Below are positions 2,597 to 31,463 of a stretch of DNA of 31,626 bases, in pieces; position 1 is the first letter of the stretch; every line of letters starts with the position of its first letter. The notes beneath the pieces are model-generated. The model had not been told where the DNA came from, searched no databases, and worked only from the letters and a program-made list of their open reading frames with translations. The DNA is taken from IMG/VR virus record IMGVR_UViG_3300046063_000017, positions 1 through 31,626 of that record, one strand, 5' to 3'. The position numbers and the translations under genes were made by a program. The stretch is from a virus (Duplodnaviria; Caudoviricetes).

Positions 2597-2655
2597 GGGT
2601 TGTGTATTGTTTTCTTTATATTCTGTCCATTGGGGTCGGAGACCAGAGACGATAA

Positions 2656-3917: not shown

Positions 3918-4850
3918 TTACGGGGAGAATTTCTTCAGTTTGTCAGACTTCTGTAGAAGCCGTTCTTTGAATTCATCCCCACCGGGGTATGGGGCGCTGT
4001 ACTGAGCACCGAGAGGGACGAGCGTCCCCGTCGTTCGGTGGTCTCCGGAGACTGTATCTGAGATGAATTCGACCTCTGCAACTCGGAACTCACCCGACGC
4101 AACTCGGGATTCCAATTCTACTGTCCCGTTTTTCCGTATCATCGGTTCGAGATACGCCTCAAATCTCAGTTCACGGGCGCCATCTTGAGACGACCCGCCT
4201 GTTGCATGGCCGGCCGCCTGGAGGTTCCCCTCGTTCCGATCAGACCACAGTCGGACGGTCTGGTTGATCGTCGTCGACTTCCGGTGGAAGTGGAGTTTCC
4301 CCCGCCGGGCAGACCAGATCCATTGCTCGTCGTCCATCTTCCCGGCTTCGTTTCGGAGCTGGCGCAGCCAGTGACGGACCGAACGGTCGTCCTTGACCGG
4401 CCACCGGCCATCGATTTTCTCACCGACGGATTCGATCACGCCCACGTCGGCACCGACTTCTGACGCGAGGTCTCGCGCAATGGCCCCGGGATCTTCGTCC
4501 TTGTAGGTCTTCGATATCTTAGCCGAGAACAACGAGAGTGAGGCATCCGTACCTTTCACCACATACCGCGTGTCGGCGTTGTTGTTCTTGGTGTCGATAA
4601 AGGTCTTTGTGATTTCACCAAAACAGACCTGTTCGACCTCGGATTCGGCCCATCCGAGTTGGATACTCACCGTGGATTGCTTCTCGATCTTTTGCCAGTC
4701 CGAATCGTTGAGGTTCCAGAGCCCGATCTCGAAGTTCAGACTCTCGCTTGTGGCACGGACGGACACGTCCATGTCTAGGTCGTTCCCACTGCCGTCCGCT
4801 ACGGCAGTGAGACCGCTCCCGAACACAACTCGGCGAACTTGCTGGTACAT
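3918..4850 (-). CDS. Baseplate hub (gpD/gp27-like)
   Basis: 310 aa with IGLWNL, VSIQLGW...FGEI and LEPMIRKNGTVELES...GEFRV..VEF. Typical hub pattern and position. Confidence 0.7.
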   Translation of the reverse strand: MYQQVRRVVFGSGLTAVADGSGNDLDMDVSVRATSESLNFEIGLWNLNDSDWQKIEKQSTVSIQLGWAESEVEQVCFGEITKTFIDTKNNNADTRYVVKGTDASLSLFSAKISKTYKDEDPGAIARDLASEVGADVGVIESVGEKIDGRWPVKDDRSVRHWLRQLRNEAGKMDDEQWIWSARRGKLHFHRKSTTINQTVRLWSDRNEGNLQAAGHATGGSSQDGARELRFEAYLEPMIRKNGTVELESRVASGEFRVAEVEFISDTVSGDHRTTGTLVPLGAQYSAPYPGGDEFKERLLQKSDKLKKFSP

Positions 4851-12026: not shown

Positions 12027-12437
12027 CTAACGGATGTCAAACCCAGCGAAATCGAAGGAAATCGCTGGCATACTGTCGATCTCCACGGCGTCACGGGAGA
12101 ACGACTGAATCCGGCATCCGATCAGCGCAGAGCCCGATTCACCGGAGTCATCGGACGGGGAGAACGTTACGTCGAAGGTCTGCGAGTTCGCCCACAGCGA
12201 CTTGAGACTGTCGATGTTGGGGCTCGTCGCGTGGACCGCGCCGGTGCCTTCGACGCGGGGGACGTTGTCGACCCAGATGCCCGTACCGCCGAGGGCGTTC
12301 TCTTGGCCGTGGCCCTTGTCTCCGGAAATCTCGATCTGTGCTGCATCCACGAGAGTGACCGAGCCGATCGTGAGTTCGGCAGTTCTCGGGTTATACTCCT
12401 TGACGTTGGGGACAGGATCCCCAGATAGAGCAGCCAT
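12027..12437 (-). CDS. Tail tube protein
   Basis: 136 aa after the sheath, with KEYNPRTAELTIG...TSPNIDSLKSL. Typical myovirus tube size and pattern. Confidence 0.75.
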   Translation of the reverse strand: MAALSGDPVPNVKEYNPRTAELTIGSVTLVDAAQIEISGDKGHGQENALGGTGIWVDNVPRVEGTGAVHATSPNIDSLKSLWANSQTFDVTFSPSDDSGESGSALIGCRIQSFSRDAVEIDSMPAISFDFAGFDIR

Positions 12438-12512: not shown

Positions 12513-14093
12513 TTACGCCGTCTGCGTAGTGTCGGGGCTACGGGTCCGAGTCTGGATATCCAGCTCGAACCGATGGACGCTTCCGTTGATCCGGTAAGTG
12601 ATATCGATGACTCCCCAGATACGATTGTCACGTCGGGTAGCGTCGATCTCGTCGGCCGGAGGAACGTTGATCTGGAGGTTCGAGTACGGACCAGACCGGT
12701 TGGCTGCCTTCGGCTTGAGGAGCTGCTTGGACCTCAGAGACGTCTTGTCCGTGGCCGTCGTGATGTCCGAATCGGTTTCGGAATCCGAGTCCGAGTCCGA
12801 GCCCGAGCCCGAGCCCGAGTCCGAATCCGAATCTGACCCCGACGTGGATTCTGTCGTCGAGTTGGGGTCGTACACACCCACCGTATTGTACCTTTCGAGG
12901 GTGTTCAGGAGCTCGTTGTGGATCATCACCCGCCCGCGCTTATTGAACGGGATCTGGGTATCGAGGCTGAGCGACACCAGCGCCGCGGTCGCCTTCTCCT
13001 CGACGAACGACTCCGTCCGACGCACGTCGAGATACCTGTATTCCGAACTGGCTCCGAGAGTCGTCAGATCATTGCTGAGGACCCACGTTCCCTGCACGTT
13101 TTCGAGAACGTTCATGGGTCCGACGTGCTCGGAGTTCGCCGTAGACATCCCGCCCTCGAACGTGTCTGACGTTTCGGGGTCGCCGATCATGGCGGTGTTG
13201 AAGCCCCCGTTGACACTCAGGCCCGAGAACCCACGGCCTTCCATGCTCGGGTCTTCCCAGACGCGCTGAGTGACGAGCAGACCAGCGATGTAGGCCGCAA
13301 GATCGTCAGAGGTCTTGTGGGCGGTGAAGGACACGTCCGCGCTCGGGACGTATCCAGCGATCTGGTGCATATCCTTCCGGTAGTCCCGATCAGAGGAATA
13401 GTCCGCCGCGTTGGCACCCACGAACGGGACGTGGATTCCGTTGCCACTGGCCCAGGCCGTCAGTTCGTCAGCGTCCCCGATTCCCGACTTGTTGAGCCGA
13501 GCGTTCGAGAGGGTAGCAACGTCCACTTCGTCTTGGTTGAGTTGGTCGAACGCGGGCGTCCAGTCGGTGTAAGTATAAGAGACCTGGATACCAGAACCGG
13601 TGCCCGAGGATGAGGTCCCCGTCACGACCTCTCCCGTGTCAGTGTTGACGTGTGCTTCCTCTGTACCCGGCGTGGTGTCGGAGTCCGGGGGAGATTCGGT
13701 CACGTAGATGACCGTCATACTCGTCCCGTCGACCGAGACAGTCACGTCAGCAGACTCCGAGATCGGAGTGTTAGATACCGTTCCGGAGCTGACACTCGTG
13801 GTGTCGGAATCGCCGAGAACTTCGTCGGTCACCGACGTGATCTCGGGAGCCAAGATCGTGTAGTAGGCTGCCCCCATGGCGTCGAGGGCCTGTGCGGAGA
13901 CGTGGGCATCACTGCCATCCCCGAAGTCGACCAATACGTCCTGTGCAGAGTCGTATCGGATCGGTTGGTTGAACGATGCGTCCCCTGGGGGTGCAGTCTC
14001 CATCGGACTGAAGATCACCACGTCGTTGAACGTCTCCCGCGGTACGGAGGCCGTGGTAGTAGACGTATTGATAGATACGCGAGGCGAAGGCAT
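12513..14093 (-). CDS. Contractile tail sheath protein
   Basis: RVSINT...RYDSAQDVLVDFG.GSDA at the N-terminus, YLDVRRT...IPFNKRGRVMI, and C-terminal RRDNR...ITYRINGSVHRFEL are sheath hallmarks. Confidence 0.85.
   Translation of the reverse strand: MPSPRVSINTSTTTASVPRETFNDVVIFSPMETAPPGDASFNQPIRYDSAQDVLVDFGDGSDAHVSAQALDAMGAAYYTILAPEITSVTDEVLGDSDTTSVSSGTVSNTPISESADVTVSVDGTSMTVIYVTESPPDSDTTPGTEEAHVNTDTGEVVTGTSSSGTGSGIQVSYTYTDWTPAFDQLNQDEVDVATLSNARLNKSGIGDADELTAWASGNGIHVPFVGANAADYSSDRDYRKDMHQIAGYVPSADVSFTAHKTSDDLAAYIAGLLVTQRVWEDPSMEGRGFSGLSVNGGFNTAMIGDPETSDTFEGGMSTANSEHVGPMNVLENVQGTWVLSNDLTTLGASSEYRYLDVRRTESFVEEKATAALVSLSLDTQIPFNKRGRVMIHNELLNTLERYNTVGVYDPNSTTESTSGSDSDSDSGSGSGSDSDSDSETDSDITTATDKTSLRSKQLLKPKAANRSGPYSNLQINVPPADEIDATRRDNRIWGVIDITYRINGSVHRFELDIQTRTRSPDTTQTA
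12767..12838. repeat. Hexamer tandem repeat (TCCGAG/CCCGAG-type) encoding a Ser-Asp/Ser-Gly tract in the sheath
   Basis: gaatccgagtccgagtccgagcccgagcccgagcccgagtccgaatccgaatc; protein SGSDSDSDSGSGSGSDSDSDSETDSD. Confidence 0.85.
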
Positions 14094-14109: not shown

Positions 14110-14460
14110 TGGTCTGCTCAGATTGCAGATGGGGTGGGCGAGCAACAACCACCCTTCTCGGAGTGCAATTCTGTGGGTCTCCGAAGATAGAGCATTGTTT
14201 CTTCGGGTCCACAACCGCCGGGATCGCAAATGAAGGGCACTTCCATGCACCCGTCAGGAGTTGAACCTGATAAGGGGCAACCTGCCCTCCAAGCGGATGC
14301 CCCACACCTCTCTATCAGAGGAGATCTATCGAGTGCAATATGGCCTCCAAATAGAGGCACAGCCCACGCCCGGCACGACCGGGCAGGCGGCGCTACCGCG
14401 TAGGCTTCTCGCAACCACTGTCGAGTAAACAGGTTGCCCCGTACGAAACGAGTGGCTGAC
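14110..14460 (-). ncRNA. Candidate ~350-nt highly structured RNA containing a tRNA-like domain
   Basis: Intergenic gap in a tightly packed operon with at least 10 helices, e.g. 14451-58/14412-19, 14379-84/14368-73, 14354-58/14343-47, 14200-06/14181-87, 14149-54/14132-37. G-U wobbles favour the minus strand. Confidence 0.65.
14246..14336 (-). other. 91-nt tRNA-like element (acceptor stem plus T-arm, non-canonical D and anticodon region)
   Basis: GCACTCG...CGGGTGC-A acceptor (7 bp) and TCAGG-TTCAACT-CCTGA T-arm. The interior has two hairpins but no canonical anticodon arm. Confidence 0.7.
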
Positions 14461-14462
14461 CG

Positions 14463-15116
14463 TCAGAAACGGACCTCGATCCGTTTCGGTTCAGCGTGCT
14501 GGCTGGCTTTGAGATCGATATCGAGTCCAGCCACCGTTTCGATCTCGTCGACGTACGTGAGGCTATAGTTCAACCGAAGCGAGATCGAGTATCTAACAAC
14601 GTCTTCGTCGCCCACATAGCCACTTACGTCCGTTGCAGACCCGATGTGCTGTCGGGGAATCTCGACGCGTACGTCGGTCGAATCTACAAGAGAGTCATCC
14701 GCTAGCTCATTCGGGAATTCGTACCGGAGATACCGTTCTAGCGGCGGTATGAACTGACTGGCCCGCTCGCCCGGTGACGTGTTCGTGATCTCGTGATTCC
14801 CTTTGATTACAGTGGTGAGATTGAGGGTGTCATAGACGGGCGTCCCATACACTTCCTCAACCGTCGTCGAAGTGCCGTCTCGGATCTCGCGTGGCCCTAA
14901 CGAGAGCTCGTCTGGATCCCGTACCACACCGGTCGGATCCAAATTCGCCATCAGCAGATGATAGACCTGCTGATCGGGTTCAGTGCCTTCGTTCTTCCAC
15001 TTCTGCGTGATCTCAAACCGTCCTTCCTGGGTTGTACCAGAGTCGTCGGTATAGGTGAGATCAAATGCGTCCGGGAGGGCGTCGAAAACCCGGTTCTGAG
15101 TTGAATATGGGATCAC
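14463..15116 (-). CDS. Tail completion/terminator protein
   Basis: 217 aa, the last neck gene before the sheath. Function inferred from synteny. Confidence 0.55.
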   Translation of the reverse strand: MIPYSTQNRVFDALPDAFDLTYTDDSGTTQEGRFEITQKWKNEGTEPDQQVYHLLMANLDPTGVVRDPDELSLGPREIRDGTSTTVEEVYGTPVYDTLNLTTVIKGNHEITNTSPGERASQFIPPLERYLRYEFPNELADDSLVDSTDVRVEIPRQHIGSATDVSGYVGDEDVVRYSISLRLNYSLTYVDEIETVAGLDIDLKASQHAEPKRIEVRF

Positions 15117-17536: not shown

Positions 17537-18568
17537 TTACAGGCCAGTCGCGTGGACCACGCCCATCGAGCCGTCCGCCTGGCTCTTGAGACGCGGCGCC
17601 ATGAGTGACAGAACCTTGAACTGATTCTCCATGCCACCGTGAGACGACCACTGGATGTTCTGCGTGCCGTCCGGATCGCGAGCGATGTCGATGACTTCCG
17701 GAACCGGCTTCAGGAGCACGGCCTCGCCGTCCGGCATCCGCGGGACGTAGAGACGGTTCTGGATCTCAGACATCTGGTCGACCCGACCGGCGACCGACTT
17801 GTCACCGTCCGAGTCGTAGTCCTCTCGGAGCTTCGACTTGATCCCGGTCCCGTGGATCAGCCAGTAGCCCCGACCGCCGGCCTCGAAGTTGTTACGCTCC
17901 AGCCGCTCGATCATGGAGTTGAGGTCAGTCGTGACGTTGTCCGGAGTCGACCACGAGGAACCACTGTACTGCTCGCGGTCCTGGTGGTTGCGGAGTCCCG
18001 GGAGGTTCATCATGGTGCCGTTGTCCTGGATCTGGAGGTCCGGCAGGCCGTCGATCACCAGATCCTCCAGCGCCTCGGAGACCTTGCGGGCGGCCGAGCG
18101 AGCCATCATGGTGTCGAGGCCCGTACCCATGTTCCGGGATTCCTTCAGCTCTCGGTGGCCGATCCGGTAGTCCTTGTGGGTGAGCGGAACGGGGACGCCC
18201 TGCTTGGTGAAGGACACCTGATCCTCCTCGGACCGGGTCCGGGCGTCCATGTTGTGCTCTGCCTCGGTCAGATCGGTGGCGACACGCCACGTAGAGATCG
18301 TGTGCGCCATCGAGATGTCGGTCGTGAGACCGGCACCTTCGAGCGCCTGCACGAGATTGAGCTGATCAGCGAGAACCGGGAACACCGTCTCGTCGAGACG
18401 TTCCCACTCGCGGTCAGTCAGGGCCGTCTCGTTGGCCCGGATCTGACGGCGATCCTCTGCGCTGTTCGCGTTCATCTGAGACCAGGCCAGCCCGGTCCCG
18501 TCGACGTTACTGCTGAGAGTCTGCTGTACCGAACCAGTGCTACCGACGTTCTGAGAGATACCGCTCAT
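17537..18568 (-). CDS. Major capsid protein (HK97 fold, encapsulin/linocin-like)
   Basis: LTDREWERLDETV, VPVPLTHKDYRIGHREL..SR..G..LDT...AARKVSEALE, GLRNH and FKVL..MAPRLK. Strong codon bias. Confidence 0.9.
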   Translation of the reverse strand: MSGISQNVGSTGSVQQTLSSNVDGTGLAWSQMNANSAEDRRQIRANETALTDREWERLDETVFPVLADQLNLVQALEGAGLTTDISMAHTISTWRVATDLTEAEHNMDARTRSEEDQVSFTKQGVPVPLTHKDYRIGHRELKESRNMGTGLDTMMARSAARKVSEALEDLVIDGLPDLQIQDNGTMMNLPGLRNHQDREQYSGSSWSTPDNVTTDLNSMIERLERNNFEAGGRGYWLIHGTGIKSKLREDYDSDGDKSVAGRVDQMSEIQNRLYVPRMPDGEAVLLKPVPEVIDIARDPDGTQNIQWSSHGGMENQFKVLSLMAPRLKSQADGSMGVVHATGL

Positions 18569-19128: not shown

Positions 19129-21840
19129 CTACTCGGAGTCCTGCCAGTCCGACATGGTCCCGACCGTCGAGGGACCGTCGGCATCAGACTCCTCCGCTCG
19201 GTTTCCGACCGTCGTTGTCGCCGACTCGGGCGTACGGGCGCCGAAGTCCGTCCCGGACGATGGCTGAAGCTCGCTCGCCGTTGCCTCCAGAGCGTCGTCA
19301 GACATGGCCTCGACAGTTTCCTCGTCGTACGCGTCCGTGTTCGAGAGGATCGTATTCTGGAGGCGCTCGCGCTTGGTCTGCTTTTCCTCGCGATGGTTGG
19401 CCGCGACCTCCTTGAGACCCTCCGACTCGAGCTTTGCGTCGATCTTGGACTCAACAGAATCCTCGAATTTCTCGGTGCCGCCGTTTTCGAGGACGCTGTC
19501 GAACTTCTCCTCCATAGCCTCTATCCGCTGTTCGAGGTCGTTGACGTCGGGCTCATCGTCATCCGAGTCGTCGCTGTCGTCCGAGGCGGCGTCGGGTTCA
19601 TCGTCGTCCGAGCCATCACCGTCGTCCGAGGCGGCGTCGGGCTCATCGTCGTCCGAGCCATCACCGTCGTTGGTGTCTGCCCCCTCCAGATCAGCGAGAT
19701 TGGAGAGCAGTTCGTCGTTCAGTTCCTTCAGATCGTCGACGGAGATGCCCGTCTTGTTCGAGATAGCTTCTAGGTCGAAGTCGCTCATGGATGATGTGTC
19801 GTTGTCGTTGTCGTTCGCGTCCGCCCCAGTGTCCGAGTCGTCCACGCCGGCGTCCGTACCGGTGGAGTCATCATCATCCGCAGAGGCGGACCCAGATTCG
19901 GTCACAGCACTATCTGTCCCCGAGTCGTCATTGTGGGAGTGGCCGTGGTCGGCACAGGTGCAGGCACCGCCATCCGACTCACAGCCACATCCTCGGGTTT
20001 CGATAGGGCCGGAGTCGGTGCTGGCCTCTGAACCCTCACCGGGAGAGTCCGCGACCGCCTCTCGACGGAGGGCATTGGCCAGCCGGTCGATCAGGCTGGC
20101 CTCGTTGGCGTTGGCTTCGACGTCTTCGGGATCGGGGAATTGCTCGATTTCAGTCAGAGTATCACGCCGAACAGTCTCCGTACTCCCGGAGTCAGACCAT
20201 TCCTCGCCATTGTCCGGTGTATAGGGTTGTACGAGAACGATAGCGTCAGATTCGTCCTCCAGTTCGTCCACAACGATACCAAATCGTTGTCCAGAATCCG
20301 ACTCCCAATTGACTGCATCCCCCTCCTTGACGTTGACTGTCGGAGAGTCCTCGGCAGAGTCTTCCCCGCCAGATTCCGTACCGGTAGGGCCACCCTCCGA
20401 AGACGGAGAGTCGAATTCGTTCAGAGTCGGCGTCTGCTCCCGTCGGAGTGCATCGGCGAAGGCGTTAGCCAGCCGATCGATGGGAGTCGACCCGTTAGCT
20501 TTGACATCTGACGCTTCGGGAAGCGCGTCGATCACGGTGATCTTGCCCCGACTAACGGTTATTTCCCCACCGACACGTTCCCACTCAGTGCCTTCTACTA
20601 ACGCGTACGGCTCAACCATTACAATCGCGTCCGACCGATCCTCTAAGGTGTCGACGATAGTACCGTACCGCTTCCCATCGTCTGTTTCCCAGTAGACCGT
20701 GTCCCCTTCCGACAGATTCACCGTCGGGGATGGGGAGTCGTCGGAGCCCTCGTCGGTCTGGTTCCCCTCAAACGACTGGTCGAACTCGTCTCGGAGCAGA
20801 CTCTTTGTCTTGCTCTCAACGGAGTCCGCCTGGTCCTCGGAAATTCCCGCAGATCCGAGAGTGGAGAGAACAGATTCCAGAGCACTCTCCGAAAGATCGT
20901 TCGAGGACGGGTCAACCACGGGGAAATACACCAGTTCGGTGTATTGATCCGCGTCCGGATCACCAAGAAGCGATTTCTTAGCGATCCACTCGGCGGCGTC
21001 CGACGAGAGATCGGATACATCGGACGGACGATCGTCCGGTTCGTTTGCGTCGGTGTGCGAGTAGTAGGCGCTGATGTAATCGTCGAGACTGGGTCGTTCC
21101 CATTCTTCGTCAGAGGTTGTACTGTCGTACTCGGGAGTCCGAGCGTTCTGTAGAACTTTGAGCTTCATGTTGAGATAGACACGCTCGGCGCTCTCGCCCG
21201 CAGGTCCGTCAGCGATGTAGCCTCCGACGAGAGGTTCGACCCCAAACTCAGACGAAGATTGGTCGGCATTGGCGACCGCGGCTTGCGTTCCGGTGCCACA
21301 ACCATCTTCGACGCTGCATTTACCGGGGCCGAGATCCCCCGGGAGTAGAGCGAGGTGGTCGGGTTTCAGATCGACCTTTACCTGTTGTCGGTACTCGCCA
21401 TCGTAGTACCCGGGTTCTCCTTCCTCGGCGCGGTAGGCCGTACTGACTTCCAACGGCTCTCCGTTTTCGAGCATATCCACGGCCATCTGGGCGTACCCAC
21501 CGATCGAACTAGATTGTTCGAGATCGATCCACAGCTCGCCATCAAGCGACCTCGTACTCGAATCGTAGTTGACCGAGTAGAAATCACCGACGACAGCGTT
21601 GTCGACGACCTCGCGGGAACGCGCCGAGATGTAATCGCCGTGGGCGTTGGTCGGATGGCCGATCGGAAGTGGCATCCGAGACCACTGCCATGCGCTCTTT
21701 TGCCATTCCTCGCCGGGGACGTAGCCCCCATTGAGATTCATGGCCCGAACGGCTGTCACATCCGTGACCAGATATTCACGGCCTTGGAGCGTCTCATAAC
21801 GCACGTCGGCCGTGTTGATCTCGTTTGTGACTAACTCCAT
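19129..21840 (-). CDS. Prohead protease (DUF2213-like) fused to extra domains and scaffold
   Basis: N-terminal W...PLPIGHP, LEVSTAY and LKPDHLALLP...GKCSVEDGCG motifs; C-terminal acidic coiled coil; position upstream of the decoration and MCP genes. Confidence 0.75.
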   Translation of the reverse strand: MELVTNEINTADVRYETLQGREYLVTDVTAVRAMNLNGGYVPGEEWQKSAWQWSRMPLPIGHPTNAHGDYISARSREVVDNAVVGDFYSVNYDSSTRSLDGELWIDLEQSSSIGGYAQMAVDMLENGEPLEVSTAYRAEEGEPGYYDGEYRQQVKVDLKPDHLALLPGDLGPGKCSVEDGCGTGTQAAVANADQSSSEFGVEPLVGGYIADGPAGESAERVYLNMKLKVLQNARTPEYDSTTSDEEWERPSLDDYISAYYSHTDANEPDDRPSDVSDLSSDAAEWIAKKSLLGDPDADQYTELVYFPVVDPSSNDLSESALESVLSTLGSAGISEDQADSVESKTKSLLRDEFDQSFEGNQTDEGSDDSPSPTVNLSEGDTVYWETDDGKRYGTIVDTLEDRSDAIVMVEPYALVEGTEWERVGGEITVSRGKITVIDALPEASDVKANGSTPIDRLANAFADALRREQTPTLNEFDSPSSEGGPTGTESGGEDSAEDSPTVNVKEGDAVNWESDSGQRFGIVVDELEDESDAIVLVQPYTPDNGEEWSDSGSTETVRRDTLTEIEQFPDPEDVEANANEASLIDRLANALRREAVADSPGEGSEASTDSGPIETRGCGCESDGGACTCADHGHSHNDDSGTDSAVTESGSASADDDDSTGTDAGVDDSDTGADANDNDNDTSSMSDFDLEAISNKTGISVDDLKELNDELLSNLADLEGADTNDGDGSDDDEPDAASDDGDGSDDDEPDAASDDSDDSDDDEPDVNDLEQRIEAMEEKFDSVLENGGTEKFEDSVESKIDAKLESEGLKEVAANHREEKQTKRERLQNTILSNTDAYDEETVEAMSDDALEATASELQPSSGTDFGARTPESATTTVGNRAEESDADGPSTVGTMSDWQDSE
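19545..19670. repeat. 45-bp tandem repeat (about 2.8 copies) in the scaffold region
   Basis: Units start at 19545, 19590 and 19635 and encode DGDGSDDDEPDAASD-like repeats. Confidence 0.85.
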
Positions 21841-21973
21841 GTGGTGTTGCCGAACCTGCTCGTAGAGCCGTCAGGGGACGATGCGCCGGGAATAGTCTGA
21901 TAGGTCATGTCATCGTTGCCCCGTGGGAGACCTCCGGACGTGGCCCGGGTACGGCCACCCCCGTCATTGGATA

Positions 21974-22016
21974 TGTCCTCGAACGGGATCGAACCGTTCT
22001 TGCCGCCATCAAGGAC
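21974..22016 (-). other. 43-nt mini-tRNA (t-element)
   Basis: GTCCTTG-ATGGCGGCAAG-AACGG-TTCGATC-CCGTT-CGAGGAC-A: 7-bp acceptor, 5-bp T-stem, canonical T-loop and discriminator A, with no D or anticodon arm. Confidence 0.8.
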
Positions 22017-22084
22017 CGATACACTCCAGATAGAGGAGAGAGGAGATAGAGAGGAAATGCCAGAGAGTAGATGCCTATGAGATC

Positions 22085-22253: not shown

Positions 22254-22297
22254 GCCCGCAGATAGTTTACGACACTACCGATGTAATCCAGATAGAG

Positions 22298-22627
22298 TTA
22301 TGAAGAGTACGTCACAACGTACACCCGATAATCTGCCGACGAGGAAGCCGACGACGGTCTGGTAACCGTGATCCGTGCCTTCGGTGGGATCGTCTCCGGG
22401 GTCTGCCGCTGAGAAGTCTGTCCCGTCGCAGACGTGACCGGGTGCCAGATCTCTTGATTTTCGGAATAGACCTCAACCGAGAAGTCGTACGAACTAGGTG
22501 CGCTCCCTGTCCCGTCGTCGATAAATACCTGGATTGTGTCAGCTCTCCGAGTCTCCGCCTCAAGCGTCACGCTACCGCCAGGACTCAGAGTTTGTACGCC
22601 ATTCGTCTTGAGAGTATCCTCGATCAT
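22298..22627 (-). CDS. Hypothetical beta-rich protein (possible minor virion protein)
   Basis: 109 aa with ATG start, Ser/Thr-rich beta-sandwich-like pattern. Confidence 0.65.
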   Translation of the reverse strand: MIEDTLKTNGVQTLSPGGSVTLEAETRRADTIQVFIDDGTGSAPSSYDFSVEVYSENQEIWHPVTSATGQTSQRQTPETIPPKARITVTRPSSASSSADYRVYVVTYSS

Positions 22628-22656
22628 ATCGAAAACCGTTATCTATCGTACCGAAT

Positions 22657-22865
22657 TGGCCGGCCACAGAATCTCACTGCACGCTGGTTTGGCTCCTCGG
22701 GTTATCCCCGAGTTACTGCCTCTCACTCTGTAGGCGCACCATACCCACACAAATGGAGCGTCTACCATGTTCTGACCAGCGTTTGTCTCGGCCGGCCATG
22801 ACGGTTGTCAGAAACCGCCTACGCGAGCTACACACCCCTCGGTGGGGAAAACCCCACGTCATTGG
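22657..22865 (-). ncRNA. Candidate ~200-nt structured RNA
   Basis: Nested stems 22790-98/22657-65 and 22775-82/22681-88, inner stems 22753-60/22735-42 and 22707-12/22696-701, hairpin 22842-22857, and a crossing pair 22816-22/22730-36. Confidence 0.6.
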
Positions 22866-22877
22866 GAGAGCACCTGT

Positions 22878-23066
22878 TCAGTCGATCCGGCGTGACGCGT
22901 TTTCGGAGTCGGTTGCCACTGTCAGTTCTCCGCCACCGTCCGCGTTCCGCGTCTCCTCCGTGTCGTTCAGGTCGGAGGCGATTGCACGGAGCGCCTGTTT
23001 GCGCTCCGACACAGAGAGGTAGTCGTATTCCTCGACGAGTCTCTGAACCTCTGTCCGGAAACTCAT
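22878..23066 (-). CDS. Small hypothetical protein (62 aa)
   Basis: ATG 23066 overlaps the protease stop (ATGA). MSFRTEVQRLVEEYDYLSVSERKQALRAIASDL is helical and acidic. Confidence 0.55.
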   Translation of the reverse strand: MSFRTEVQRLVEEYDYLSVSERKQALRAIASDLNDTEETRNADGGGELTVATDSENASRRID

Positions 23067-24346
23067 GCAGACGTGGCCGAGCCAGCGAGGATCGGTTCGA
23101 CCAGAATCCGTTTTTCCACCAGCGACGGGACGCGGCGCCGCCCCTCGTCGTCGCACTTCACGATGCCCCACGACTGGAGTAGATTGATGTCTTGGCTCAC
23201 GTGGGTATCGTACCGGTCGGTCACATCCGCCAGATCCGAGATAGACGTGATGGTAGTGTCGTCGGACGCGAGCACGCGGAGGATCTCCCGACGGTTCTCT
23301 GTGAAGACGTAGGGAGCGATCGAGGCCGGAAGAACCAGCGAATCCTCGGCCGCCCACACCCCCTGACTCTGATGGGTAGTGTACCCGCCAGCGAACATCG
23401 GCTCTCCGGACAGGATTCGCACACCCAGTTGTTCCTCGACATGCGTGATCTTGTTAATGATCGAGTAGCCTCCGCCACCCGCGAACAGCATCCCGACGAG
23501 CTGTCCCGAATCGGACAGTAGCATCGGAGATCCGCTGTCTCCGCCCGCAGACTCGGCGTCCGTCACGAGTTGGTCTCGGAGCAGGATCGTGCCTGCATCG
23601 CCGTAGTTGACCTTGAGCGAAGCAGACGTAGAGACGATCTTCCCCTCGGTGACACCGGTCGTTCGGCCGGTCTTCACAACCGGTTCCGACTTCAGCGTCG
23701 AGTAGTCTTCCCGATAGACGCCGACCGGAGAGAGGTCGAGGTCGTGACACACGGCCGTCTCTCGTTCGGGAGCGACGGTCCTAGCCGCCGCGTCGGCGTA
23801 CTCCCCATCGTCGATCGGCACGTATCCCGCTAGACTCCCGACACGATCGTCGACGGAACCGCCGTCCATGGGCGACGGTTGGATCACGTCTTCGTCGAAG
23901 TCGGCCTTGTTGACCCGAGCGTAGACGTGGTTGTTGCTCAGACGAACGAACTGACCCTGGTCGACGCCCGAGTCCCACTTGGCAGACGACGCATCTGGAT
24001 CCGTAACGACCGCCGGATACGGTCCACCGGTCGCTGCTGTCGAGTTGGCATTGATCTCGGAGACGCCTCCCGGAATCGGACGGTGTCGTGTCTGCTTATC
24101 CGACTGCGCCTCAGGAATCTCTACGTCCACGAGAGGCTCAAACGCCTCGCGTTCCTCTCCCATCCCGAGATCGATCACGTCGGTATCTTCCTCGGTCTGA
24201 TTATCGACCAGCTCGGCATCAGGGAGATCGTCTTCCGGTTCTTTCTGCGAAACGAGAGTGACGACTTCTTCGGACTGCTCGTCGTACTCTACCGCCAGTA
24301 CGTTCTTACGATCAAGTAGATGCTCGTAGTTCTCAGTGTCAGCCAT
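23063..24346 (-). CDS. Trypsin-like (S1/Nal1-like) serine protease with C-terminal winged-HTH domain
   Basis: LSNNHVY (His), ADAA (Asp) and GGDSGSP (Ser) plus KTGRTTGVTEG. C-terminal FTENRREILRVL...SISDLADVTDR...VSQDINLL..WGIV...EGRRRVP. Confidence 0.8.
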   Translation of the reverse strand: MADTENYEHLLDRKNVLAVEYDEQSEEVVTLVSQKEPEDDLPDAELVDNQTEEDTDVIDLGMGEEREAFEPLVDVEIPEAQSDKQTRHRPIPGGVSEINANSTAATGGPYPAVVTDPDASSAKWDSGVDQGQFVRLSNNHVYARVNKADFDEDVIQPSPMDGGSVDDRVGSLAGYVPIDDGEYADAAARTVAPERETAVCHDLDLSPVGVYREDYSTLKSEPVVKTGRTTGVTEGKIVSTSASLKVNYGDAGTILLRDQLVTDAESAGGDSGSPMLLSDSGQLVGMLFAGGGGYSIINKITHVEEQLGVRILSGEPMFAGGYTTHQSQGVWAAEDSLVLPASIAPYVFTENRREILRVLASDDTTITSISDLADVTDRYDTHVSQDINLLQSWGIVKCDDEGRRRVPSLVEKRILVEPILAGSATSA

Positions 24347-24436: not shown

Positions 24437-26512
24437 TCAGAACTCTCCGCGCCACCGAGTCGTCGCCAGCACCTTGTCCTTCATCTTGCTTGCCAGCCGT
24501 TCCGCCTGATCCTCCCCGTGCTCATCAGACAGGTCAGCGACCGCCGACCCCCACGTCCCCCCGATTGACGACCACCACTGTAACAGGGTCTCCCGGTCCC
24601 ATCCGTTGGGGAGGTCTCCGTCAGGAGTTTCGTTGATCCGGGGCGTGATCTGATACTCCATTGCGTCGGTCTCGGGAGACGGATCATACGCGGACTCTGT
24701 GAGCCCGGCACCGCGGTATGCAGCCGATCCGCCATCGGCAAGCGCGACGACATAGGCAGGAGTCCCCGTCGTTGCAGTCACCTTTCGCTTGTCGCCGTCC
24801 GGGGTCGGGAACGCAAACTCCTCGGTGAGCGTCGCGGTCACGACACCGAGCCCACTCCCTTTCACCTGAACCACATCTCCTGGCTCATGAAGCGGTTTTT
24901 CGTCTTGGATATAGTCAACGAGGTCCGACCGGTTCACATCCGAGGAGACGCCAATGTCGTCGTTCACGTCGCCGCCAGTCCGTTCGACCGCGGTTGCATC
25001 TTCACCCCGCTCCTCGGGGACTGATCCAGTCTCGTCGCCGAGGGCGCTCCCGATCTCCTCCTGTGAGAATCCAAGACGCTTGTAAACCAACTCGGTCGGC
25101 GCACCCAACGTGACCGCGTCCTCTGCTTGTTTGAACGCAGACGCCTCAGTCTGATGGAGGTCGGCCTTGTCTTGGCGGTCGAGTTGATACAGAGACGGCC
25201 AATCAACACTGTATTCTCCCTTCTTCGGTGGTGCAATTACACCGTACTTTTCGAGAAGGTCAATCGCCCGGCGAATGATAACGCTCGTGACGAACTGCGT
25301 CTGGCGTTCTTGGACCTGTGCGACCCAGTTAGCGGTGTCTTGGGACGACGCAAGATCTCCACGTTCCGATCCAAGAAGAATCCGTTTCGGAATCCCGACC
25401 ACCGAGACAATGTGCTCGATAATCTTGTCGATGATCCCCGATGGATCGACGGCCTGTCCGTCGATCACTTCGAGATCCATATTCCTCCCGTAAGCGGTGG
25501 TTCGCATCCCGTTCACCATCTCGTACATCTGCTCGTCGAATCGCTGTACGTCGCTTTGGTCGACGCCAGCTCCCTCAGCAGACGCGAAGAACTTGCGATC
25601 GGCGGATCCCCAATACATCTCCGCCGCCGCGCCCACTACTTTGTCGAGATCGACGAGCCGATTGAGAATCGGATACAGAACCGGTGTATGCTTGAGCACC
25701 GAGCTTTCGGGTTGTTCAGTCAGGTGGAGCACCCGACTGTGGTGTACCACTCGCTCGTCGTAATCCGAACTGTCTGCGTCGGCTTCGGGTTGGTCGAAGC
25801 GGATCTCATAGGTCTTGGGTAGCCCCGGTTCCCGAGAGTCTGACCCCGGTTGGGCGAGCTCCCAATCCGTCACGTCCACCTGCGAGAAAACCTCGATATA
25901 TTGGAGATCTTCAGGCCCGTTGATCTCCTCTGCATCTACGGGCTGAGAAATCCGTTTCCCATCGTCGAAGCCGAAGAAGATCAGACCATACTCGCCAACA
26001 CGCTGGAGTCTGTCTGCCCACTCACAATAATTAAAGAAGTCGCGCTGAAGATGAACGCCATCCAAAAGAGTTTTTATATCCTTCTCGAAGTCCGTCTGAT
26101 CGTCCGTCTCCGGCGTGTCCGTTATGCTCGGGGGTTCACGCCACGTCGCTTCTACTGGTTCCGTGATGATTGCCCGTGCGATATCCTGACGCTTGTACCT
26201 CTGATACAGGTCGTGAGCGTCAATATTCTCGTTCTCTGGGTACCCAAGCGTGCTCCAGATATCCCGATCCCCGTCATGAGAGATCCCGGGGCCGCCCATG
26301 GTCCGTCGCTGTGACTTGGCCTCTGCCAGCGACATGGCCTCGTTCACGAACAGCCCGACCTCGGCCGCCTGATCGTCGTTGACCTCCGGTGGAGACTGAC
26401 CGTTTGAGGCGGCCTGCATGGCCAAGAAACCCCGACCCGCCTCTGCATACTGGTCGTAGTCGCGAGAGGCCCGAAACTCGTCGGGGATCGTCTCAGAGGT
26501 GTCTGCGTTCAT
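24437..26512 (-). CDS. Portal protein (DUF1073-type) with C-terminal extension
   Basis: LGYP, YKRQDIARAII..PVEATW, VHHSRVLH, GIPKRILLGSERGDLASSQD..NW and WPSL; follows terL. ATG at 26512. Confidence 0.88.
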   Translation of the reverse strand: MNADTSETIPDEFRASRDYDQYAEAGRGFLAMQAASNGQSPPEVNDDQAAEVGLFVNEAMSLAEAKSQRRTMGGPGISHDGDRDIWSTLGYPENENIDAHDLYQRYKRQDIARAIITEPVEATWREPPSITDTPETDDQTDFEKDIKTLLDGVHLQRDFFNYCEWADRLQRVGEYGLIFFGFDDGKRISQPVDAEEINGPEDLQYIEVFSQVDVTDWELAQPGSDSREPGLPKTYEIRFDQPEADADSSDYDERVVHHSRVLHLTEQPESSVLKHTPVLYPILNRLVDLDKVVGAAAEMYWGSADRKFFASAEGAGVDQSDVQRFDEQMYEMVNGMRTTAYGRNMDLEVIDGQAVDPSGIIDKIIEHIVSVVGIPKRILLGSERGDLASSQDTANWVAQVQERQTQFVTSVIIRRAIDLLEKYGVIAPPKKGEYSVDWPSLYQLDRQDKADLHQTEASAFKQAEDAVTLGAPTELVYKRLGFSQEEIGSALGDETGSVPEERGEDATAVERTGGDVNDDIGVSSDVNRSDLVDYIQDEKPLHEPGDVVQVKGSGLGVVTATLTEEFAFPTPDGDKRKVTATTGTPAYVVALADGGSAAYRGAGLTESAYDPSPETDAMEYQITPRINETPDGDLPNGWDRETLLQWWSSIGGTWGSAVADLSDEHGEDQAERLASKMKDKVLATTRWRGEF

Positions 26513-26519
26513 GGGTAGC

Positions 26520-28055
26520 TCACCAAGGGTTCGTCTCGAACATTCCCGATGACTGCCGACCAGCCGCTTTCGGGTTGTCCATCTCCATCGCCCATACTGC
26601 CATCGACGCTGCATCCAGCAGGTCCGGCGACCGTCCGAGGCGGTCTCTTACTCCGGACTTCGTAGTCCGGAGCACTACATCCCCGCGGACAGATCGTTCG
26701 GTGAATTCCATTGCTCTCCCTGCCGCGTACAGTTCCTCCAACAGCCGGTCGTTATGCACCACGCCGCCATCTCGAAGGAACTGACCGAGCAGATCGTATG
26801 CCTCAGTCTTCTTGTCGTAGTATTCAGACCTCTGAAGCGCATTCGACGACGCCTTGAAGCGGAACGCGTTCGGATACTCCAGGTCTGCATCGTCAGCAGG
26901 TCCAGATCCCTCTCCGATGGCGTCGATCGCCAGGTGACCTTTCAACGGGGCCGCGTCCATCGTTTGGTCAATCAGACGCCGGTTCTCGTAATGGCGGTTG
27001 AACTGCTCGGTCGCAAAGACCACGAGGTGATTTCCCCGTACCTCTATCACCGTCGTTCTGTCCCCGCCCTGATGGCCAATGTCGATGCCAATTCCCTTCC
27101 GGACTAGCGGGATCTCATCTTTCGTGAGCGGCTCCTCGTCGTCTTCCGTAACCGTCGCGGCTGCCTCGTCGACGTGTTCGGGGTAAATCGGTCGGTGAAT
27201 CGTCCCGTCCGATGGGGGAATCTCCCCAAGACGTCTTCTGAACCACCGCGAATCGAGCGCGGGATCTCGACTGTCTCGGGCTTCCTCGAACCCGGGCCAC
27301 TCTTTCTGGTTCCACGACCGCCAGTTCTGCTTTATCTTCTCGAGGTTAACCAGTCCGGGGATTCGGTCTTTGTCTTGGTAGCCTTCGATCTCTGCATCGA
27401 TCTTGACGTTCCGACTCTCGAACGACGAGAACTGGACGACGTGCCAGTCGTCCTTCTGCATCAGATCGTAAACAATGTTCGACTCGTCTTTCGGCGGATT
27501 GGCGATAACAACCATCCGGTCCCGGTCGTCCGTAATCGTGGACTCTGCCGAGTCGATGTGTTCCTGCGTGATCGAGGGTTTGTCGGCCTCCTCGACCACA
27601 TACATCATATAGTCGTTGTGACGGCCCTCCAGATCGTCCGGGTTCCGCGGCGAAATCGCCTTCAGGTACCACTCGTCGTCAAGCTCCGTCAGAAGTTGGG
27701 GAGGACTCTCTAGCCGACGCCCTGGTAGACCGTACTCCTGTTTCGCGTGCTTGTGAAGTCCCTTCAGCGGCCGCCAGATCGTGTCTTCCAAAACCGAGTA
27801 CGATCCGGACGTGATGTTTACCGTCGAGTTGGGGTTACAGAACAGGAATCCCCCAGAGATCGACGAAACGCCGTAGGACTTCCCGACACCGTTTCCCGAG
27901 ACGATCAGTACCTTCCGATGGTTCGCTACCGCCCGATGGATTCGCTCCTGTGTCTCGCTGAGATCAAGACCAAAGATGTCTTCCGAGAACCGGATATACC
28001 GGTCTTCCCCAGCTCCGGGAGCATAGGGCGCGAGAGAGGGAGCGTCCGCTGCCAT
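26520..28055 (-). CDS. terL: Terminase large subunit
   Basis: Walker A SGNGVGKS, Walker B YVVEEAD, coupling motif IANP, nuclease GIDIG..GGDRT, IDAIGEG and SPDLLDA. Confidence 0.92.
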   Translation of the reverse strand: MAADAPSLAPYAPGAGEDRYIRFSEDIFGLDLSETQERIHRAVANHRKVLIVSGNGVGKSYGVSSISGGFLFCNPNSTVNITSGSYSVLEDTIWRPLKGLHKHAKQEYGLPGRRLESPPQLLTELDDEWYLKAISPRNPDDLEGRHNDYMMYVVEEADKPSITQEHIDSAESTITDDRDRMVVIANPPKDESNIVYDLMQKDDWHVVQFSSFESRNVKIDAEIEGYQDKDRIPGLVNLEKIKQNWRSWNQKEWPGFEEARDSRDPALDSRWFRRRLGEIPPSDGTIHRPIYPEHVDEAAATVTEDDEEPLTKDEIPLVRKGIGIDIGHQGGDRTTVIEVRGNHLVVFATEQFNRHYENRRLIDQTMDAAPLKGHLAIDAIGEGSGPADDADLEYPNAFRFKASSNALQRSEYYDKKTEAYDLLGQFLRDGGVVHNDRLLEELYAAGRAMEFTERSVRGDVVLRTTKSGVRDRLGRSPDLLDAASMAVWAMEMDNPKAAGRQSSGMFETNPW

Positions 28056-28085: not shown

Positions 28086-28613
28086 CTACTCGTACAGTTC
28101 TTCGACGCTGTCGTCGCCGGGATCGTTCCCGTCGTCGTCTTCGTCCATGTTGTGTTCGACCGCCGCTTCCAACCCGTCCTTCCACGTCATCTCGACCTCC
28201 TCTGGTTCTTCGTCGGTCAGACCAAGAGACTGGGAAAGCTCCACGTCAGTCTCAATGGCACGGTCGATCTGCCGGCGGACCTTGAGTTCCATCTCGAGGT
28301 TGCCTTCTTCGCGAGCTTTCCGGGCGAGTTGCTGGAGATTCTGCCGGTTCTGACGCTGTTCCCGAAGCCGCGAAACACCGGATTCGAGGCTCGAAGCGTC
28401 GAGTTTCGGGAGCCAATCGTCCATCCGGCTAATATCCGTCTCGATAGCCGACTCCGTCGCGTCGTACTTCTTGGCAATCGCCTGTACGACGTTCCGGTAG
28501 GACTGCCCATGGACTACTAGCCGCTGCCAGGTCTCTTCTCTACGGCTGACAAGTTCAGCATCCATGTCAGTCGGGCCGCTCTGTTCCTCGGTGTTCGTAT
28601 CGTCAGTAGCCAT
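28086..28613 (-). CDS. Terminase small subunit (HTH plus coiled coil)
   Basis: HTH-like IAKKYDATESAIETDI, coiled coil and QSLGL; directly upstream of terL. Confidence 0.7.
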   Translation of the reverse strand: MATDDTNTEEQSGPTDMDAELVSRREETWQRLVVHGQSYRNVVQAIAKKYDATESAIETDISRMDDWLPKLDASSLESGVSRLREQRQNRQNLQQLARKAREEGNLEMELKVRRQIDRAIETDVELSQSLGLTDEEPEEVEMTWKDGLEAAVEHNMDEDDDGNDPGDDSVEELYE

Positions 28614-28643: not shown

Positions 28644-29414
28644 TCAGTTGAGCGTCTCGTCAGAGTGGTACTGCACGAACCGCTTCCACTGACGTAGGTT
28701 GTGTTCGTCGATCTCGTCCGGATCGACCATCCGGTGATCGTCCGGCCGATAGTAGTCCTGCATCTCCTGTCCGTCGAACACGACCATTTTCCCGTTCAGA
28801 CTCCCGTTGAACAGCCACGACGTGCTGTCAGAGGAGTCGAAACCATACTGTTCCGGGTCTTCCAACGGAGTGAACCCGAGCGCGTGGACCTTACAGTCGT
28901 GTTCGTGCGCCTTCTCCGTGAACCACGGGAGAACTTTGAACTCGCCACTCGTGATCTCGCCGCCAGCGATCCCCCCGATGGCGACGTAATCATAGTCGCG
29001 GACGAGATCAAGCCATGCGTCCTTCCCGCGGTTCTTGTGCCAGACAGGGATGCAGTCCTTCCCCGTCCCCCGCTCCAGTCGGTTTCGGAGTTCGTGTACG
29101 CGCCCGAGACCGACCAACGAGTCGATGTCCAACTCGAAGAAGTAATCGAAGTCGTGCCGATTGATGAACTGGACGTAGTCGTCGACGTAGTCGTCCCAGT
29201 CGATATCTTCGGACCCACTGGCGTCCTGCATGAAGGTGAACGCCCCTGAGTCAAGCATGAACTGCTTGCAGTGATCCGACTTCGCGTACGCGACCTGCCA
29301 GTCCTCGATGTACTCGAACGATTCGAGCACGTACGGGAACTTGTGCTCGTAGAACGACTCCGCCTTTGTGTCCGTCCCGGCAACGTGAATCCGGAGGCCG
29401 TTCCACCCGGACAT
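28644..29414 (-). CDS. DpdA/TGT-like transglycosylase (7-deazaguanine insertion into DNA)
   Basis: MLDSGAFT, ELDID, IPVWH, YVAIGGIA, VHALG and FDSSDSTSW are TGT-barrel motifs; adjacent to que genes. Confidence 0.75.
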   Translation of the reverse strand: MSGWNGLRIHVAGTDTKAESFYEHKFPYVLESFEYIEDWQVAYAKSDHCKQFMLDSGAFTFMQDASGSEDIDWDDYVDDYVQFINRHDFDYFFELDIDSLVGLGRVHELRNRLERGTGKDCIPVWHKNRGKDAWLDLVRDYDYVAIGGIAGGEITSGEFKVLPWFTEKAHEHDCKVHALGFTPLEDPEQYGFDSSDSTSWLFNGSLNGKMVVFDGQEMQDYYRPDDHRMVDPDEIDEHNLRQWKRFVQYHSDETLN

Positions 29415-29419
29415 AGGAG

Positions 29420-30019
29420 CTATTCGATCTCGTGCTCGACGGTGAACTCCGTCTCACACTCCGGGCACTCGACGGCTATCTCGACGGTCTCCGTCTGTGT
29501 GTCGTCTCCGGTATCCTCGTCGTCTTCGTCGATCTCGTCGTCCTCCTCGAAGAAATCATCCAGACTAAACTCCGAGGTCTCCATCACGGCATCGACTTCG
29601 TCCTCCTCGAAGGCCGTGTCTTCGACCTCAAAGTCGTCTTGACGGTCGAGATCCTCGAATTCGACCGCCAGCGTATCCATGTCCCAGCCCGACTCCATGC
29701 TGGTCTTGTTGTCCGCGATCCGTGCGCCCTTGATCTCGGCCTCGTCCAGATCCGGTCGCGGGAGGACAGGAACCTCGTCCAACCCGAGACGCTTGAGGGC
29801 CTTGAACCGGCCGTGGCCCTTGATGATCTCACCGTCGCCATCGACTACGATCGGTTGATCCATCCCGTAGTTCTTAATCGACGACTGGATCTTTTCGATC
29901 TGCTCCTCCGGGTGCTCCTTCGGATTGTTGACGTACGGATGAACGTCGTCAGTCGACCAGATCTCGATCGTGTCTGCAACGGCCTTGGGGACCACGTCAC
30001 CGACGGTCAGCTCACTCAT
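29420..30019 (-). CDS. ParB-like N-terminal domain protein with C-terminal Zn ribbon
   Basis: PYVNNPKEH, SIKNYG..QPIVVD...IIKGHGR..A, RIADNK and CPECETEF. Confidence 0.85.
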   Translation of the reverse strand: MSELTVGDVVPKAVADTIEIWSTDDVHPYVNNPKEHPEEQIEKIQSSIKNYGMDQPIVVDGDGEIIKGHGRFKALKRLGLDEVPVLPRPDLDEAEIKGARIADNKTSMESGWDMDTLAVEFEDLDRQDDFEVEDTAFEEDEVDAVMETSEFSLDDFFEEDDEIDEDDEDTGDDTQTETVEIAVECPECETEFTVEHEIE

Positions 30020-30677
30020 CCGCCGACACCCCCTTCACCAGATCGAAAAACTCCTCTCGGAGCGCAGGATCCTCACGGGCCTTGCCCCGGAGGGCGCTGG
30101 TCCGAGTCATGGCATTGGGCTCCTGAACCCCCCGGAGCGCCATGCACTCATGCTCGGCCTCCAGGCAGACGATCACTGCCTGTGGATCGAGTTCTTCGTC
30201 GACAGCATCCGCGATCTGTGTAGTGAGCCGTTCCTGAACCTGTGGACGGCGAGCGTAGTCGTCGACTACGCGGGAGAACTTCGACAGCCCCACGATCTCG
30301 TCGCCGGGGACGTATCCGATGTGGGCCTGCCCTCGGAACGGGAGGAAGTGATGGGCACACATCGACGCAACATCGATCCCATCGACGATCACCATCTCGT
30401 GACTCCCGTCCGAGTCGAAAGTCGTCTCTAGATGGCGTCGAGGATCAACCCACAGTCCCGCGAACAGTTCTTCGACACGGGACTCCGCAACACGCCGCGG
30501 CGTCTCGTCGAGGTGTTCAGAGTCGCCGTTGAGGTTGAGTGCCTCGATAAAGTCCACGAACGCCGACTTGACCGGTTCTAGATCGGGCGTGCAATCCGTC
30601 TGTTTGGCCTCTGACGGCAAATCCGTGGGTGCGGTTGTTCCGTTCGGTTCGGGTGTAGGAGATGAGTTTTGATTCAT
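30012..30677 (-). CDS. folE: GTP cyclohydrolase I
   Basis: ETPRRVA, SMCAHHFLPF.G.AHIGY.P, GLSKFSR, RRPQVQERLT.QIA and HECMALRGV. Confidence 0.95.
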   Translation of the reverse strand: MNQNSSPTPEPNGTTAPTDLPSEAKQTDCTPDLEPVKSAFVDFIEALNLNGDSEHLDETPRRVAESRVEELFAGLWVDPRRHLETTFDSDGSHEMVIVDGIDVASMCAHHFLPFRGQAHIGYVPGDEIVGLSKFSRVVDDYARRPQVQERLTTQIADAVDEELDPQAVIVCLEAEHECMALRGVQEPNAMTRTSALRGKAREDPALREEFFDLVKGVSADE

Positions 30678-30707
30678 AGAGATTCCAACAAATAAACGCG
30701 AGATCCG

Positions 30708-31463
30708 CTATACCCCGGTCGCCTCGTCGTAGCCACTAACTTGCAGACGAGGAGAGAACTGGTATCCGTGCTCTTGGCACAGATCCATAACCTCGGGGTA
30801 ATTGTCAAGCAGATCGTCTCGGGACGCACCGGCCGGCATCAGCATAATATCCGACGGAGCGATCCCGAAACGCCGGGCGAGATCCTTAATCTCGTCTATG
30901 TCTTGGTCCCGGGAGACAACGAATTTGAACGTCGCTCGGGGGTCGGCCGCGAACCGGTTGATCGGTTCGGGGACGATCCGGCGTGACTCCGCCATCCCCG
31001 AGTTGGACAGTTTGACGCTGACGTTGTAGTGGTTGACGTAGTCGTCGAACGGAGTCTTGGGGCTGATCGTCCCGTTGGTCTCCACCTCAACGGAGATCCG
31101 CTCGTGTTCTTTGAGCAGCCTCCCGAGTTTGTCTTGGTGGAGCATCGGCTCTCCCCCCGTGAGGATCAGGTTCGCCGTCCCGTCGTTAAGCGACCCGAGA
31201 TGTCCATTCCGGACCCATTCATCGATCAGGTCCGTGGCGTTGACCGGTTCGGGATTCCGATATGTCTCTATCGTATCGCACAACCACGTGGCGTCGTCCT
31301 CGGTCTCCATCTCCTCTTGGGGATGATCCGGGTCATCCGGGTTACCGCACTTGAGATTGCAGTATCCGAGACGAAGGAACAACGCTGGTTTCCCGGCGGT
31401 CGGTCCCTCGCCCTGGATCGACATGAACTGCTCCGCAACCGGGAGCGTTATGTCGGGATTCAT
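30708..31463 (-). CDS. queE: 7-carboxy-7-deazaguanine synthase (radical SAM)
   Basis: FMSIQGEG, FLRLGYCNLKC...WLCDT (expanded CxxxC...C), LTGGEP, VETNGT and SPRLQ. Confidence 0.92.
   Translation of the reverse strand: MNPDITLPVAEQFMSIQGEGPTAGKPALFLRLGYCNLKCGNPDDPDHPQEEMETEDDATWLCDTIETYRNPEPVNATDLIDEWVRNGHLGSLNDGTANLILTGGEPMLHQDKLGRLLKEHERISVEVETNGTISPKTPFDDYVNHYNVSVKLSNSGMAESRRIVPEPINRFAADPRATFKFVVSRDQDIDEIKDLARRFGIAPSDIMLMPAGASRDDLLDNYPEVMDLCQEHGYQFSPRLQVSGYDEATGV

Follow-up and report, generated by a model that had tools for sequence, protein, structure and literature searches.

We found that an uncultured haloarchaeal myovirus carries a 43-nt mini-tRNA, here called element 1, between its terminase-portal genes and its capsid genes. 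Element 1 is probably an RNase P/tRNase Z processing mark like the t-element of Haloferax 5S rRNA. We consider this, one of two functions suggested by the first-pass annotation, the best reading because of its likeness to the host 5S element and because of its position. A second element, absent from the first-pass annotation, lies before the tail sheath gene.

The mini-tRNA and its gene setting

The window, that is, the whole 31.6-kb virus record analysed here, comes from halite metagenomes. All genes identified in it are on the minus strand, and its best cultured matches are haloviruses, with 30-42% identity. The nearest protein homologues (58-67%) are on short contigs; single-protein and pattern scans of viral_contigs and a pattern scan of metagenome_contigs gave no close relatives of the virus, and the region of element 1 had no blastn match among phages. 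The main features are listed in the order in which the minus strand is read.

26520-28055, minus strand: terminase gene
24437-26614, minus strand: portal gene
22298..22627, minus strand: 109-aa ORF with no family match, the last gene before element 1
22029..22056, minus strand: non-specific pyrimidine tract 5' of element 1
22015..22035, minus strand: 21-nt leader adjoining element 1, repeated at 22277-22297 (86% identical)
21974..22016, minus strand: element 1, the 43-nt mini-tRNA, recognised by pairing potential, descriptor and model R2
21841..21973, minus strand: 133-nt leader to the protease/capsid message, which would remain after a tRNase Z cut; it has G+C-rich hairpins
19129..21840, minus strand: DUF2213-type prohead protease/scaffold gene (903 aa), the first gene after element 1
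17537..18568, minus strand: major capsid protein gene
14246..14300, minus strand: element 2, with an acceptor (one G-U), a linker with GG and one hairpin, a T-arm with a TTCAACT loop, and discriminator A
12513..14093, minus strand: tail sheath gene, the first gene after element 2

The 903-aa protease/scaffold gene had no direct family match; PF09979 (DUF2213) is present in many of its homologues. Tape measure and baseplate genes were also identified on the minus strand. Between the portal and the prohead protease (22298-24346), this strand encodes a 427-aa protease with a C-terminal HVO_A0114 domain and the 109-aa ORF, and no match to a head-morphogenesis (MuF) protein was found there. Elsewhere, QueE, GTP cyclohydrolase I, ParB-like and TGT-like genes (28644-31463, minus strand) are likely a 7-deazaguanine DNA-modification cluster, and a 647-aa tail-region protein (716-2659, minus strand) has a stretch like glycosyl hydrolase 16. 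At 9-169 on the plus strand there is an HgcC-family match under the gathering score (37.1 bits, E 3e-5), which overlaps the 3' end of sot0042; RNAs of this kind are ends of IS200/605 TnpB guide RNAs.

Element 1 is intergenic and in sense orientation, 133 nt 5' of the protease/scaffold start in a 457-nt gap. Its acceptor joins GTCCTTG (22016-22010) with CGAGGAC (21981-21975) over 7 bp, with a single G-U at pair position 6, where the plus strand has a C-A mismatch. An 11-nt linker, ATGGCGGCAAG (22009-21999), with GG at positions 10-11, leads into a 5-bp T-stem, AACGG/CCGTT (21998-21994 with 21986-21982), and a TTCGATC T-loop (21993-21987); discriminator A is at 21974, and CCA is not encoded. The element can also be drawn with 6+6 bp, the register of its family. 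These results bear out the first-pass description of a minus-strand acceptor and T-arm with one G-U, a GG linker and a discriminator A. With an acceptor that can stack on a T-arm with a consensus T-loop, element 1 has the design of a t-element.

The same annotation had noted that element 1 lacks an anticodon, and this holds: the 11-nt linker takes the place of a decoding anticodon arm, and ARAGORN found 0 tRNA genes in the window. Rfam gave nothing relevant over element 1 and no tRNA or hammerhead match in the window. Element 1 is not a functional tRNA gene, as the cloverleaf with D and anticodon arms is absent. It is covered by contigs from two of four other halite runs (X2 and X5, from two studies) with no difference listed, and is therefore not an assembly artefact.

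The chance of meeting such a structure was assessed with a descriptor for acceptor plus T-arm, run on the window and on random sequence. The descriptor matched two places in the window, element 1 and 14246-14300, and none in 300 order-1 Markov windows under three settings; under the strict setting there were 0 matches in 24 Mb. The bare 10-mer T-loop motif was not enriched (7 found, 6.2 expected).

Folding predictions were less simple. The pairing potential behind the first-pass term 'perfect' mini-tRNA is real, but the half-tRNA fold is not the predicted minimum: for element 1 alone it reaches -12.7 kcal/mol against -16.9 kcal/mol, a gap of 4.2, and the T-stem has a predicted probability of 0.005. 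In longer contexts the T-stem rises to 0.67-0.88 and the acceptor falls to 0.04-0.09. The half-tRNA fold was dominant in 0 of 5 contexts, in predictions that leave out tertiary contacts and salt, and in the competing fold the linker pairs with the T-stem. The host 5S-upstream element, the HF2 copy at 4375-4415 and the HFTV1 copy, unlike element 1, reach the mini-tRNA fold directly.

The pyrimidine tract that had been described as preceding element 1 is present, but it is not specific to the element. A similar tract lies upstream of the gene whose end is at 28613, several genes have G-poor leaders, and in one predicted fold the tract pairs with the 3' strand of element 1. An 11-nt motif on the minus strand occurs in four copies (22015-22035, 22277-22297, 14346-14356 and 12420-12430) where 0.73 are expected. 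Two of these are inside the 21-nt direct repeat; the 240 nt between its copies, upstream of element 1, are structured (z -1.84). The motif is possibly a late promoter or a protein-binding site. A scan for sigma-70 promoters and terminators found nothing, with a sigma-70 model unsuited to archaea.

Element 2 is likewise intergenic and in sense, 152 nt before the tail sheath start in a 369-nt gap. Its 5' boundary is ambiguous: the shortest form has 55 nt, a start at 14336 makes it 91 nt long and one near 14454 about 210 nt, and the element is predicted to close with three different 5' strands. The 226-nt stretch at 14240-14465, in which the T-arm closes a much longer insert, has a better predicted fold than any of its 200 shuffled versions (z -3.24).

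Relatives among haloviruses and their hosts

We compared element 1 with other mini-tRNAs. HF2 has two copies with a 6+6-bp stack and GG at positions 10-11, at 2905-2946 and 4375-4415, both between sense genes; the same design was found once in HHTV-2, on four IMG/VR contigs, and, at about 42 nt and again with GG at 10-11, directly 5' of a 5S rRNA gene on Halomicrobium mukohataei pHmuk01. A nine-row alignment including element 1 had 98.1% of 108 cells paired and two-sided change in 10 of 12 pairs, counts that are partly circular because rows were chosen for pairing. Four members of alignments A5/A6 came from a pattern forcing GGCGGC. That GGCGGC-linker pattern had at least 120 matches in viral_contigs. 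Among the matches listed, 55 had no T-stem, 37 were of tRNA length, 20 had the T-arm only, 2 were at an edge and 6 were mini-elements; 4 of these 6 entered A5/A6, while L239 (16-nt linker) and L323 (weak pairs) were excluded.

Model R2 was built from eight rows (HF2, HHTV-2, IMG/VR and host 5S elements) with element 1 left out. In the window it gave element 1 as its sole clear match (21.9 bits, E 0.006), the next reaching 12 bits. The likeness to the haloarchaeal 5S-upstream element was found by way of the Halomicrobium sequence, with which element 1 also aligns, rather than that of Haloferax. Element 1 is alike in family to the host 5S element. Over 26 records, R2 matched 6, among which HHTV-2, HF2 and pHmuk01 are training sequences. 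A phiCh1 match (22.4 bits) was rejected, as it has no clean mini-tRNA fold. R2 also found an untrained copy in HFTV1 (39.4 bits), which fills the gp62-gp63 gap: an unannotated mini-tRNA at 35057-35098 (plus strand) of MG550112, with a linker closely like that of the host 5S element. A weaker mini-tRNA candidate lies before another gene in the same genome (26519-26566, plus strand). Run on 97 loci that surround distant DUF2213 homologues (1.23 Mb, largely non-haloviral), the descriptor gave four matches, all tRNA-length, and no mini-elements. Genomes from the phylum of G001, small and apparently non-halophilic, were left out.

The slot before the prohead protease gene held a tRNA-like fold in 15 of the 27 halovirus and provirus loci examined, many of them near-duplicates. 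The positive loci are ten ChaoS9-type IMG/VR loci, ChaoS9, a Halobacterium plasmid provirus, L113, CGphi46 and HFTV1; L113 is counted although its acceptor is imperfect and ambiguous, and so is CGphi46, whose acceptor pairs 6/7 by eye and is absent from its minimum fold. The element is dispensable, since 12 of the 27 loci have none at this slot (phiH1, phiCh1, Hardycor1, HATV-3, Humcor1, HJTV-4, L001, L099, L105, L108, L132 and L167); L001 among them is the closest named relative. The twelve ChaoS9-type loci amount to 8 distinct sequences, in which 87 of 87 cells are paired and 5 of 11 pairs show two-sided change. These relatives keep acceptor, T-arm and GG, and the middle arm varies freely. 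This result upholds the first-pass view that the element is not a decayed tRNA. The forms at the slot range from a 120-nt HFTV1 tRNA-like gene with a canonical D-arm (6434-6553), separated from the protease by two small ORFs, through four-arm and three-arm forms without an anticodon loop, to the 43 nt of element 1. The first-pass annotation had said that a full tRNA with random decay at this place in relatives would count against its reading. This is partly the case: HFTV1 does have a full-size tRNA-like gene at the slot, but it is intact and not decayed.

Element 1 occupies the same slot as the ChaoS9-type three-arm elements. The ChaoS9-type model R1 ranked element 2 top in the window (E 0.037) and gave no match to element 1 even with E allowed up to 10. 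Element 1 and the ChaoS9-type elements have slot and design in common, with no support from R1 for common descent. As R1 ranks element 2 first and misses element 1, the slot was apparently filled more than once and not inherited.

Several further observations were made at these loci. In the Halobacterium salinarum plasmid provirus (L166), the element adjoins the protease even though an HNH gene separates it from the head-morphogenesis gene. A 58-codon 'hypothetical protein' is annotated over this ChaoS9-type element (2310-2486) and is probably spurious. G415 C1 (15086-15190, minus strand; locus L186) has a tandem pair of mini-tRNA-like folds before a small membrane-protein gene, besides a further element before the protease. 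In HATV-3 (L119), a tRNA-Gln(TTG)-like cloverleaf, unannotated and recognised by eye, overlaps the annotated start of gp19 (about 13414-13473, plus strand).

Proposed processing of the late message and other explanations

If element 1 is a processing mark, a late transcript would read through from the terminase-portal block into the capsid block, and element 1 would fold in it as a half-tRNA with the linker GG docked on the T-loop. Host RNase P would cut at 22017/22016, before the first base, and host tRNase Z at 21974/21973, after the discriminator A. We place the cuts here because the retained parts are those that trimming enzymes read, and by analogy with Haloferax t-elements. The upstream message would then end beyond the pyrimidine tract, and the protease-capsid message would begin, at a new 5' end, with the 133-nt leader. 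Element 2 would be cut likewise, so that the packaging genes, head block and tail block are separated. Most speculatively, the pieces may decay at different rates; such decay, suggested by position alone, would uncouple the high-copy capsid and sheath proteins from the low-copy terminase and portal.

Previous studies offer precedents for such cleavage. The Haloferax 5S t-element is reported to be cut by tRNase Z (PMC4326828; PMC7714728), a crRNA with t-elements on either side to be freed from them in vivo by RNase P and tRNase Z (PMC4326828), and RNase Z to recognise the acceptor/T stack and need little else (PMC3790967). The halovirus RNA data published so far cut both ways for the processing reading. 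For HFTV1, the RNA-seq supplement names 'TSS gp63', 'TSS non coding RNA' and 'TSS gp15' and gives no coordinates (PMC12542753); the first belongs to the gp62-gp63 gap filled by the R2 copy, and the second lies between gp14 and gp15. The sole HFTV1 vtRNA is reported to accumulate as two small species that co-sediment with ribosomes (bioRxiv 10.64898/2026.09.13.751334). We infer that this vtRNA is the 120-nt fold at the protease slot; the source passages give no coordinates for it. The small species demonstrate release, yet they also favour a role for the free RNA. In HF2, primer extension mapped a 5' end at T-4384 (PMC8707807), which by our own coordinates is inside the linker of the element at 4375-4415 and at neither predicted cut, and RT-PCR detected uncut transcripts of up to 35 kb (PMC8707807).

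It is rather unlikely that message cutting is a by-product and that what matters is the free small RNA, a CCA-tailed minihelix that would bind or titrate tRNA-handling proteins, ribosomes or defence enzymes aimed at acceptor ends late in infection. G1-C72, the full acceptor and A73 would suit end-processing, a late promoter region would yield high output, and the HFTV1 species point the same way. Against this, acceptor sequences vary freely, with an A-C mismatch at pair 1-72 in many relatives, and a trans-acting RNA need not hold one slot before the protease gene. The absence of an anticodon loop leaves nothing for decoding or as bait for an anticodon nuclease; since the fixed intergenic slot also suggests a role in cis, the decoy for tRNA-targeting defences proposed at first reading has gained little support. 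A decoy for archaeosine enzymes, linked to the 7-deazaguanine genes, was set aside, as the element is also found in ChaoS9, whose first 50 kb have no 7-deazaguanine genes annotated. Less likely again is a cis structure that stays uncut. With a late promoter of its own upstream, it would serve as a 5' leader or an internal roadblock, making the capsid message more stable or acting on initiation or termination. The HF2 copy, which closely follows a mapped promoter and contains a 5' end (PMC8707807), would fit, as would the separate HFTV1 'TSS non coding RNA' (PMC12542753), the enriched upstream motif near both elements and the alternative folds predicted for element 1. But the 12-bp stack, the T-loop consensus and the GG, in exact tRNA geometry, are what trimming enzymes read and a roadblock does not need.

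We regard it as improbable that element 1 is a remnant of a tRNA gene or attP with no present function. Halovirus attP sites are reported to be partial tRNA genes (PMC8707807, PMC7230728), the HFTV1 slot has its full-size tRNA-like gene, and many relatives have no element. However, an attP keeps the 3' part of the host tRNA, whereas element 1 keeps both acceptor strands and loses the middle; no integrase was found among the 32 ORFs scanned on this partial contig, element 1 is flanked by structural genes, and a 22-nt T-arm stretch had no exact match in metagenome_contigs. Element 1 is very probably not an attP. The two-sided changes in relatives and the matching positions of the two elements also speak against a remnant. 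It is very improbable indeed that element 1 is a hairpin arisen by chance or belongs to a small protein gene. ORFs of 122 aa and 39 aa do run through element 1, and its fold is not the minimum; but the null sequence gave no match, D+E make up 6.6% and 2.6% of the two ORFs where the neighbouring genes have 12-25%, and the 122-aa ORF has no family match. Processing by the host enzymes remains the reading that we prefer for element 1.

More tentatively, tailed haloviruses of several families may use a mitochondria-like tRNA punctuation. An interchangeable cut mark at the protease slot would run from a full vtRNA (HFTV1) through the ChaoS9 and CGphi46 forms to the minimum of 43 nt, and virion protein ratios would be set by the cuts that host RNase P and tRNase Z make there. 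If so, some viral tRNAs of unclear use would be processing signals first.

Comparison with known systems

These elements bear on the question of why archaeal and bacterial viruses have partial or unusual tRNAs, and on the scarcely known processing of mRNA in archaeal viruses. If these folds are cut marks, viruses would be shaping their messages with essential host enzymes of tRNA trimming. What is new here is the presence of two elements before two high-copy structural blocks, together with a prohead-protease slot shared with cultured viruses. In the literature searched, mini-tRNAs without an anticodon are not described as viral processing marks, and the passages on tRNA in the papers on ChaoS9, the HF1 group and Hardycor1 make no mention of these elements. 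Unannotated copies are present in ChaoS9, CGphi46, HF2, HHTV-2 and HFTV1, and RNA-seq and ribosome profiling data are public for the last of these. 'Transcription starts' called from plain RNA-seq at such places could be processed ends.

The closest known system is the Haloferax volcanii 5S t-element (Hoelzle et al. 2008, 2012, as described in PMC4326828 and PMC7714728), which at about 42-43 nt, with an acceptor on a T-arm, is like element 1. The haloarchaeal version compared here, from Halomicrobium pHmuk01, likewise has a short linker with GG at 10-11 and no anticodon arm. Element 1 differs in being viral and in an mRNA region, 133 nt from a start codon, whereas the 5S element abuts rRNA. 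It also has a perfect G1-C72 where the host 5S fold has A-C, and its cleavage is a prediction. In plant mitochondria, t-elements are reported to be tRNA-like folds of untranslated regions at which RNase P and RNase Z set the ends of mRNAs (PMC3790967), and mitochondrial tRNA punctuation works through the same two activities (see also PMC1920247), as proposed here. Those systems use organellar or eukaryotic enzymes, whereas an archaeal virus would borrow those of its host.

Among viruses, the HFTV1 vtRNA-Thr(CGU) would hold the same slot, between the portal and the prohead protease block, and is reported to be expressed and to accumulate as small RNA (bioRxiv 10.64898/2026.09.13.751334; PMC12542753). 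It is described as full-size and ribosome-associated, with a D-arm and a predicted anticodon and intron, whereas element 1 has neither arm. The HF2 attP HrrHF2_450 resembles element 1 as a partial tRNA sequence in a halovirus genome. Such an attP has a 3' part identical to a host tRNA and lies beside an integrase; element 1 has both acceptor strands, and its neighbours are structural genes.

Top-half tRNA mimics read by RNase P also include mascRNA/menRNA, which form the ends of eukaryotic lncRNAs, and the tRNA-like domain of tmRNA, a bacterial rescue RNA. Element 2, in a window with no Rfam or ARAGORN match of this kind, resembles the three-arm form.
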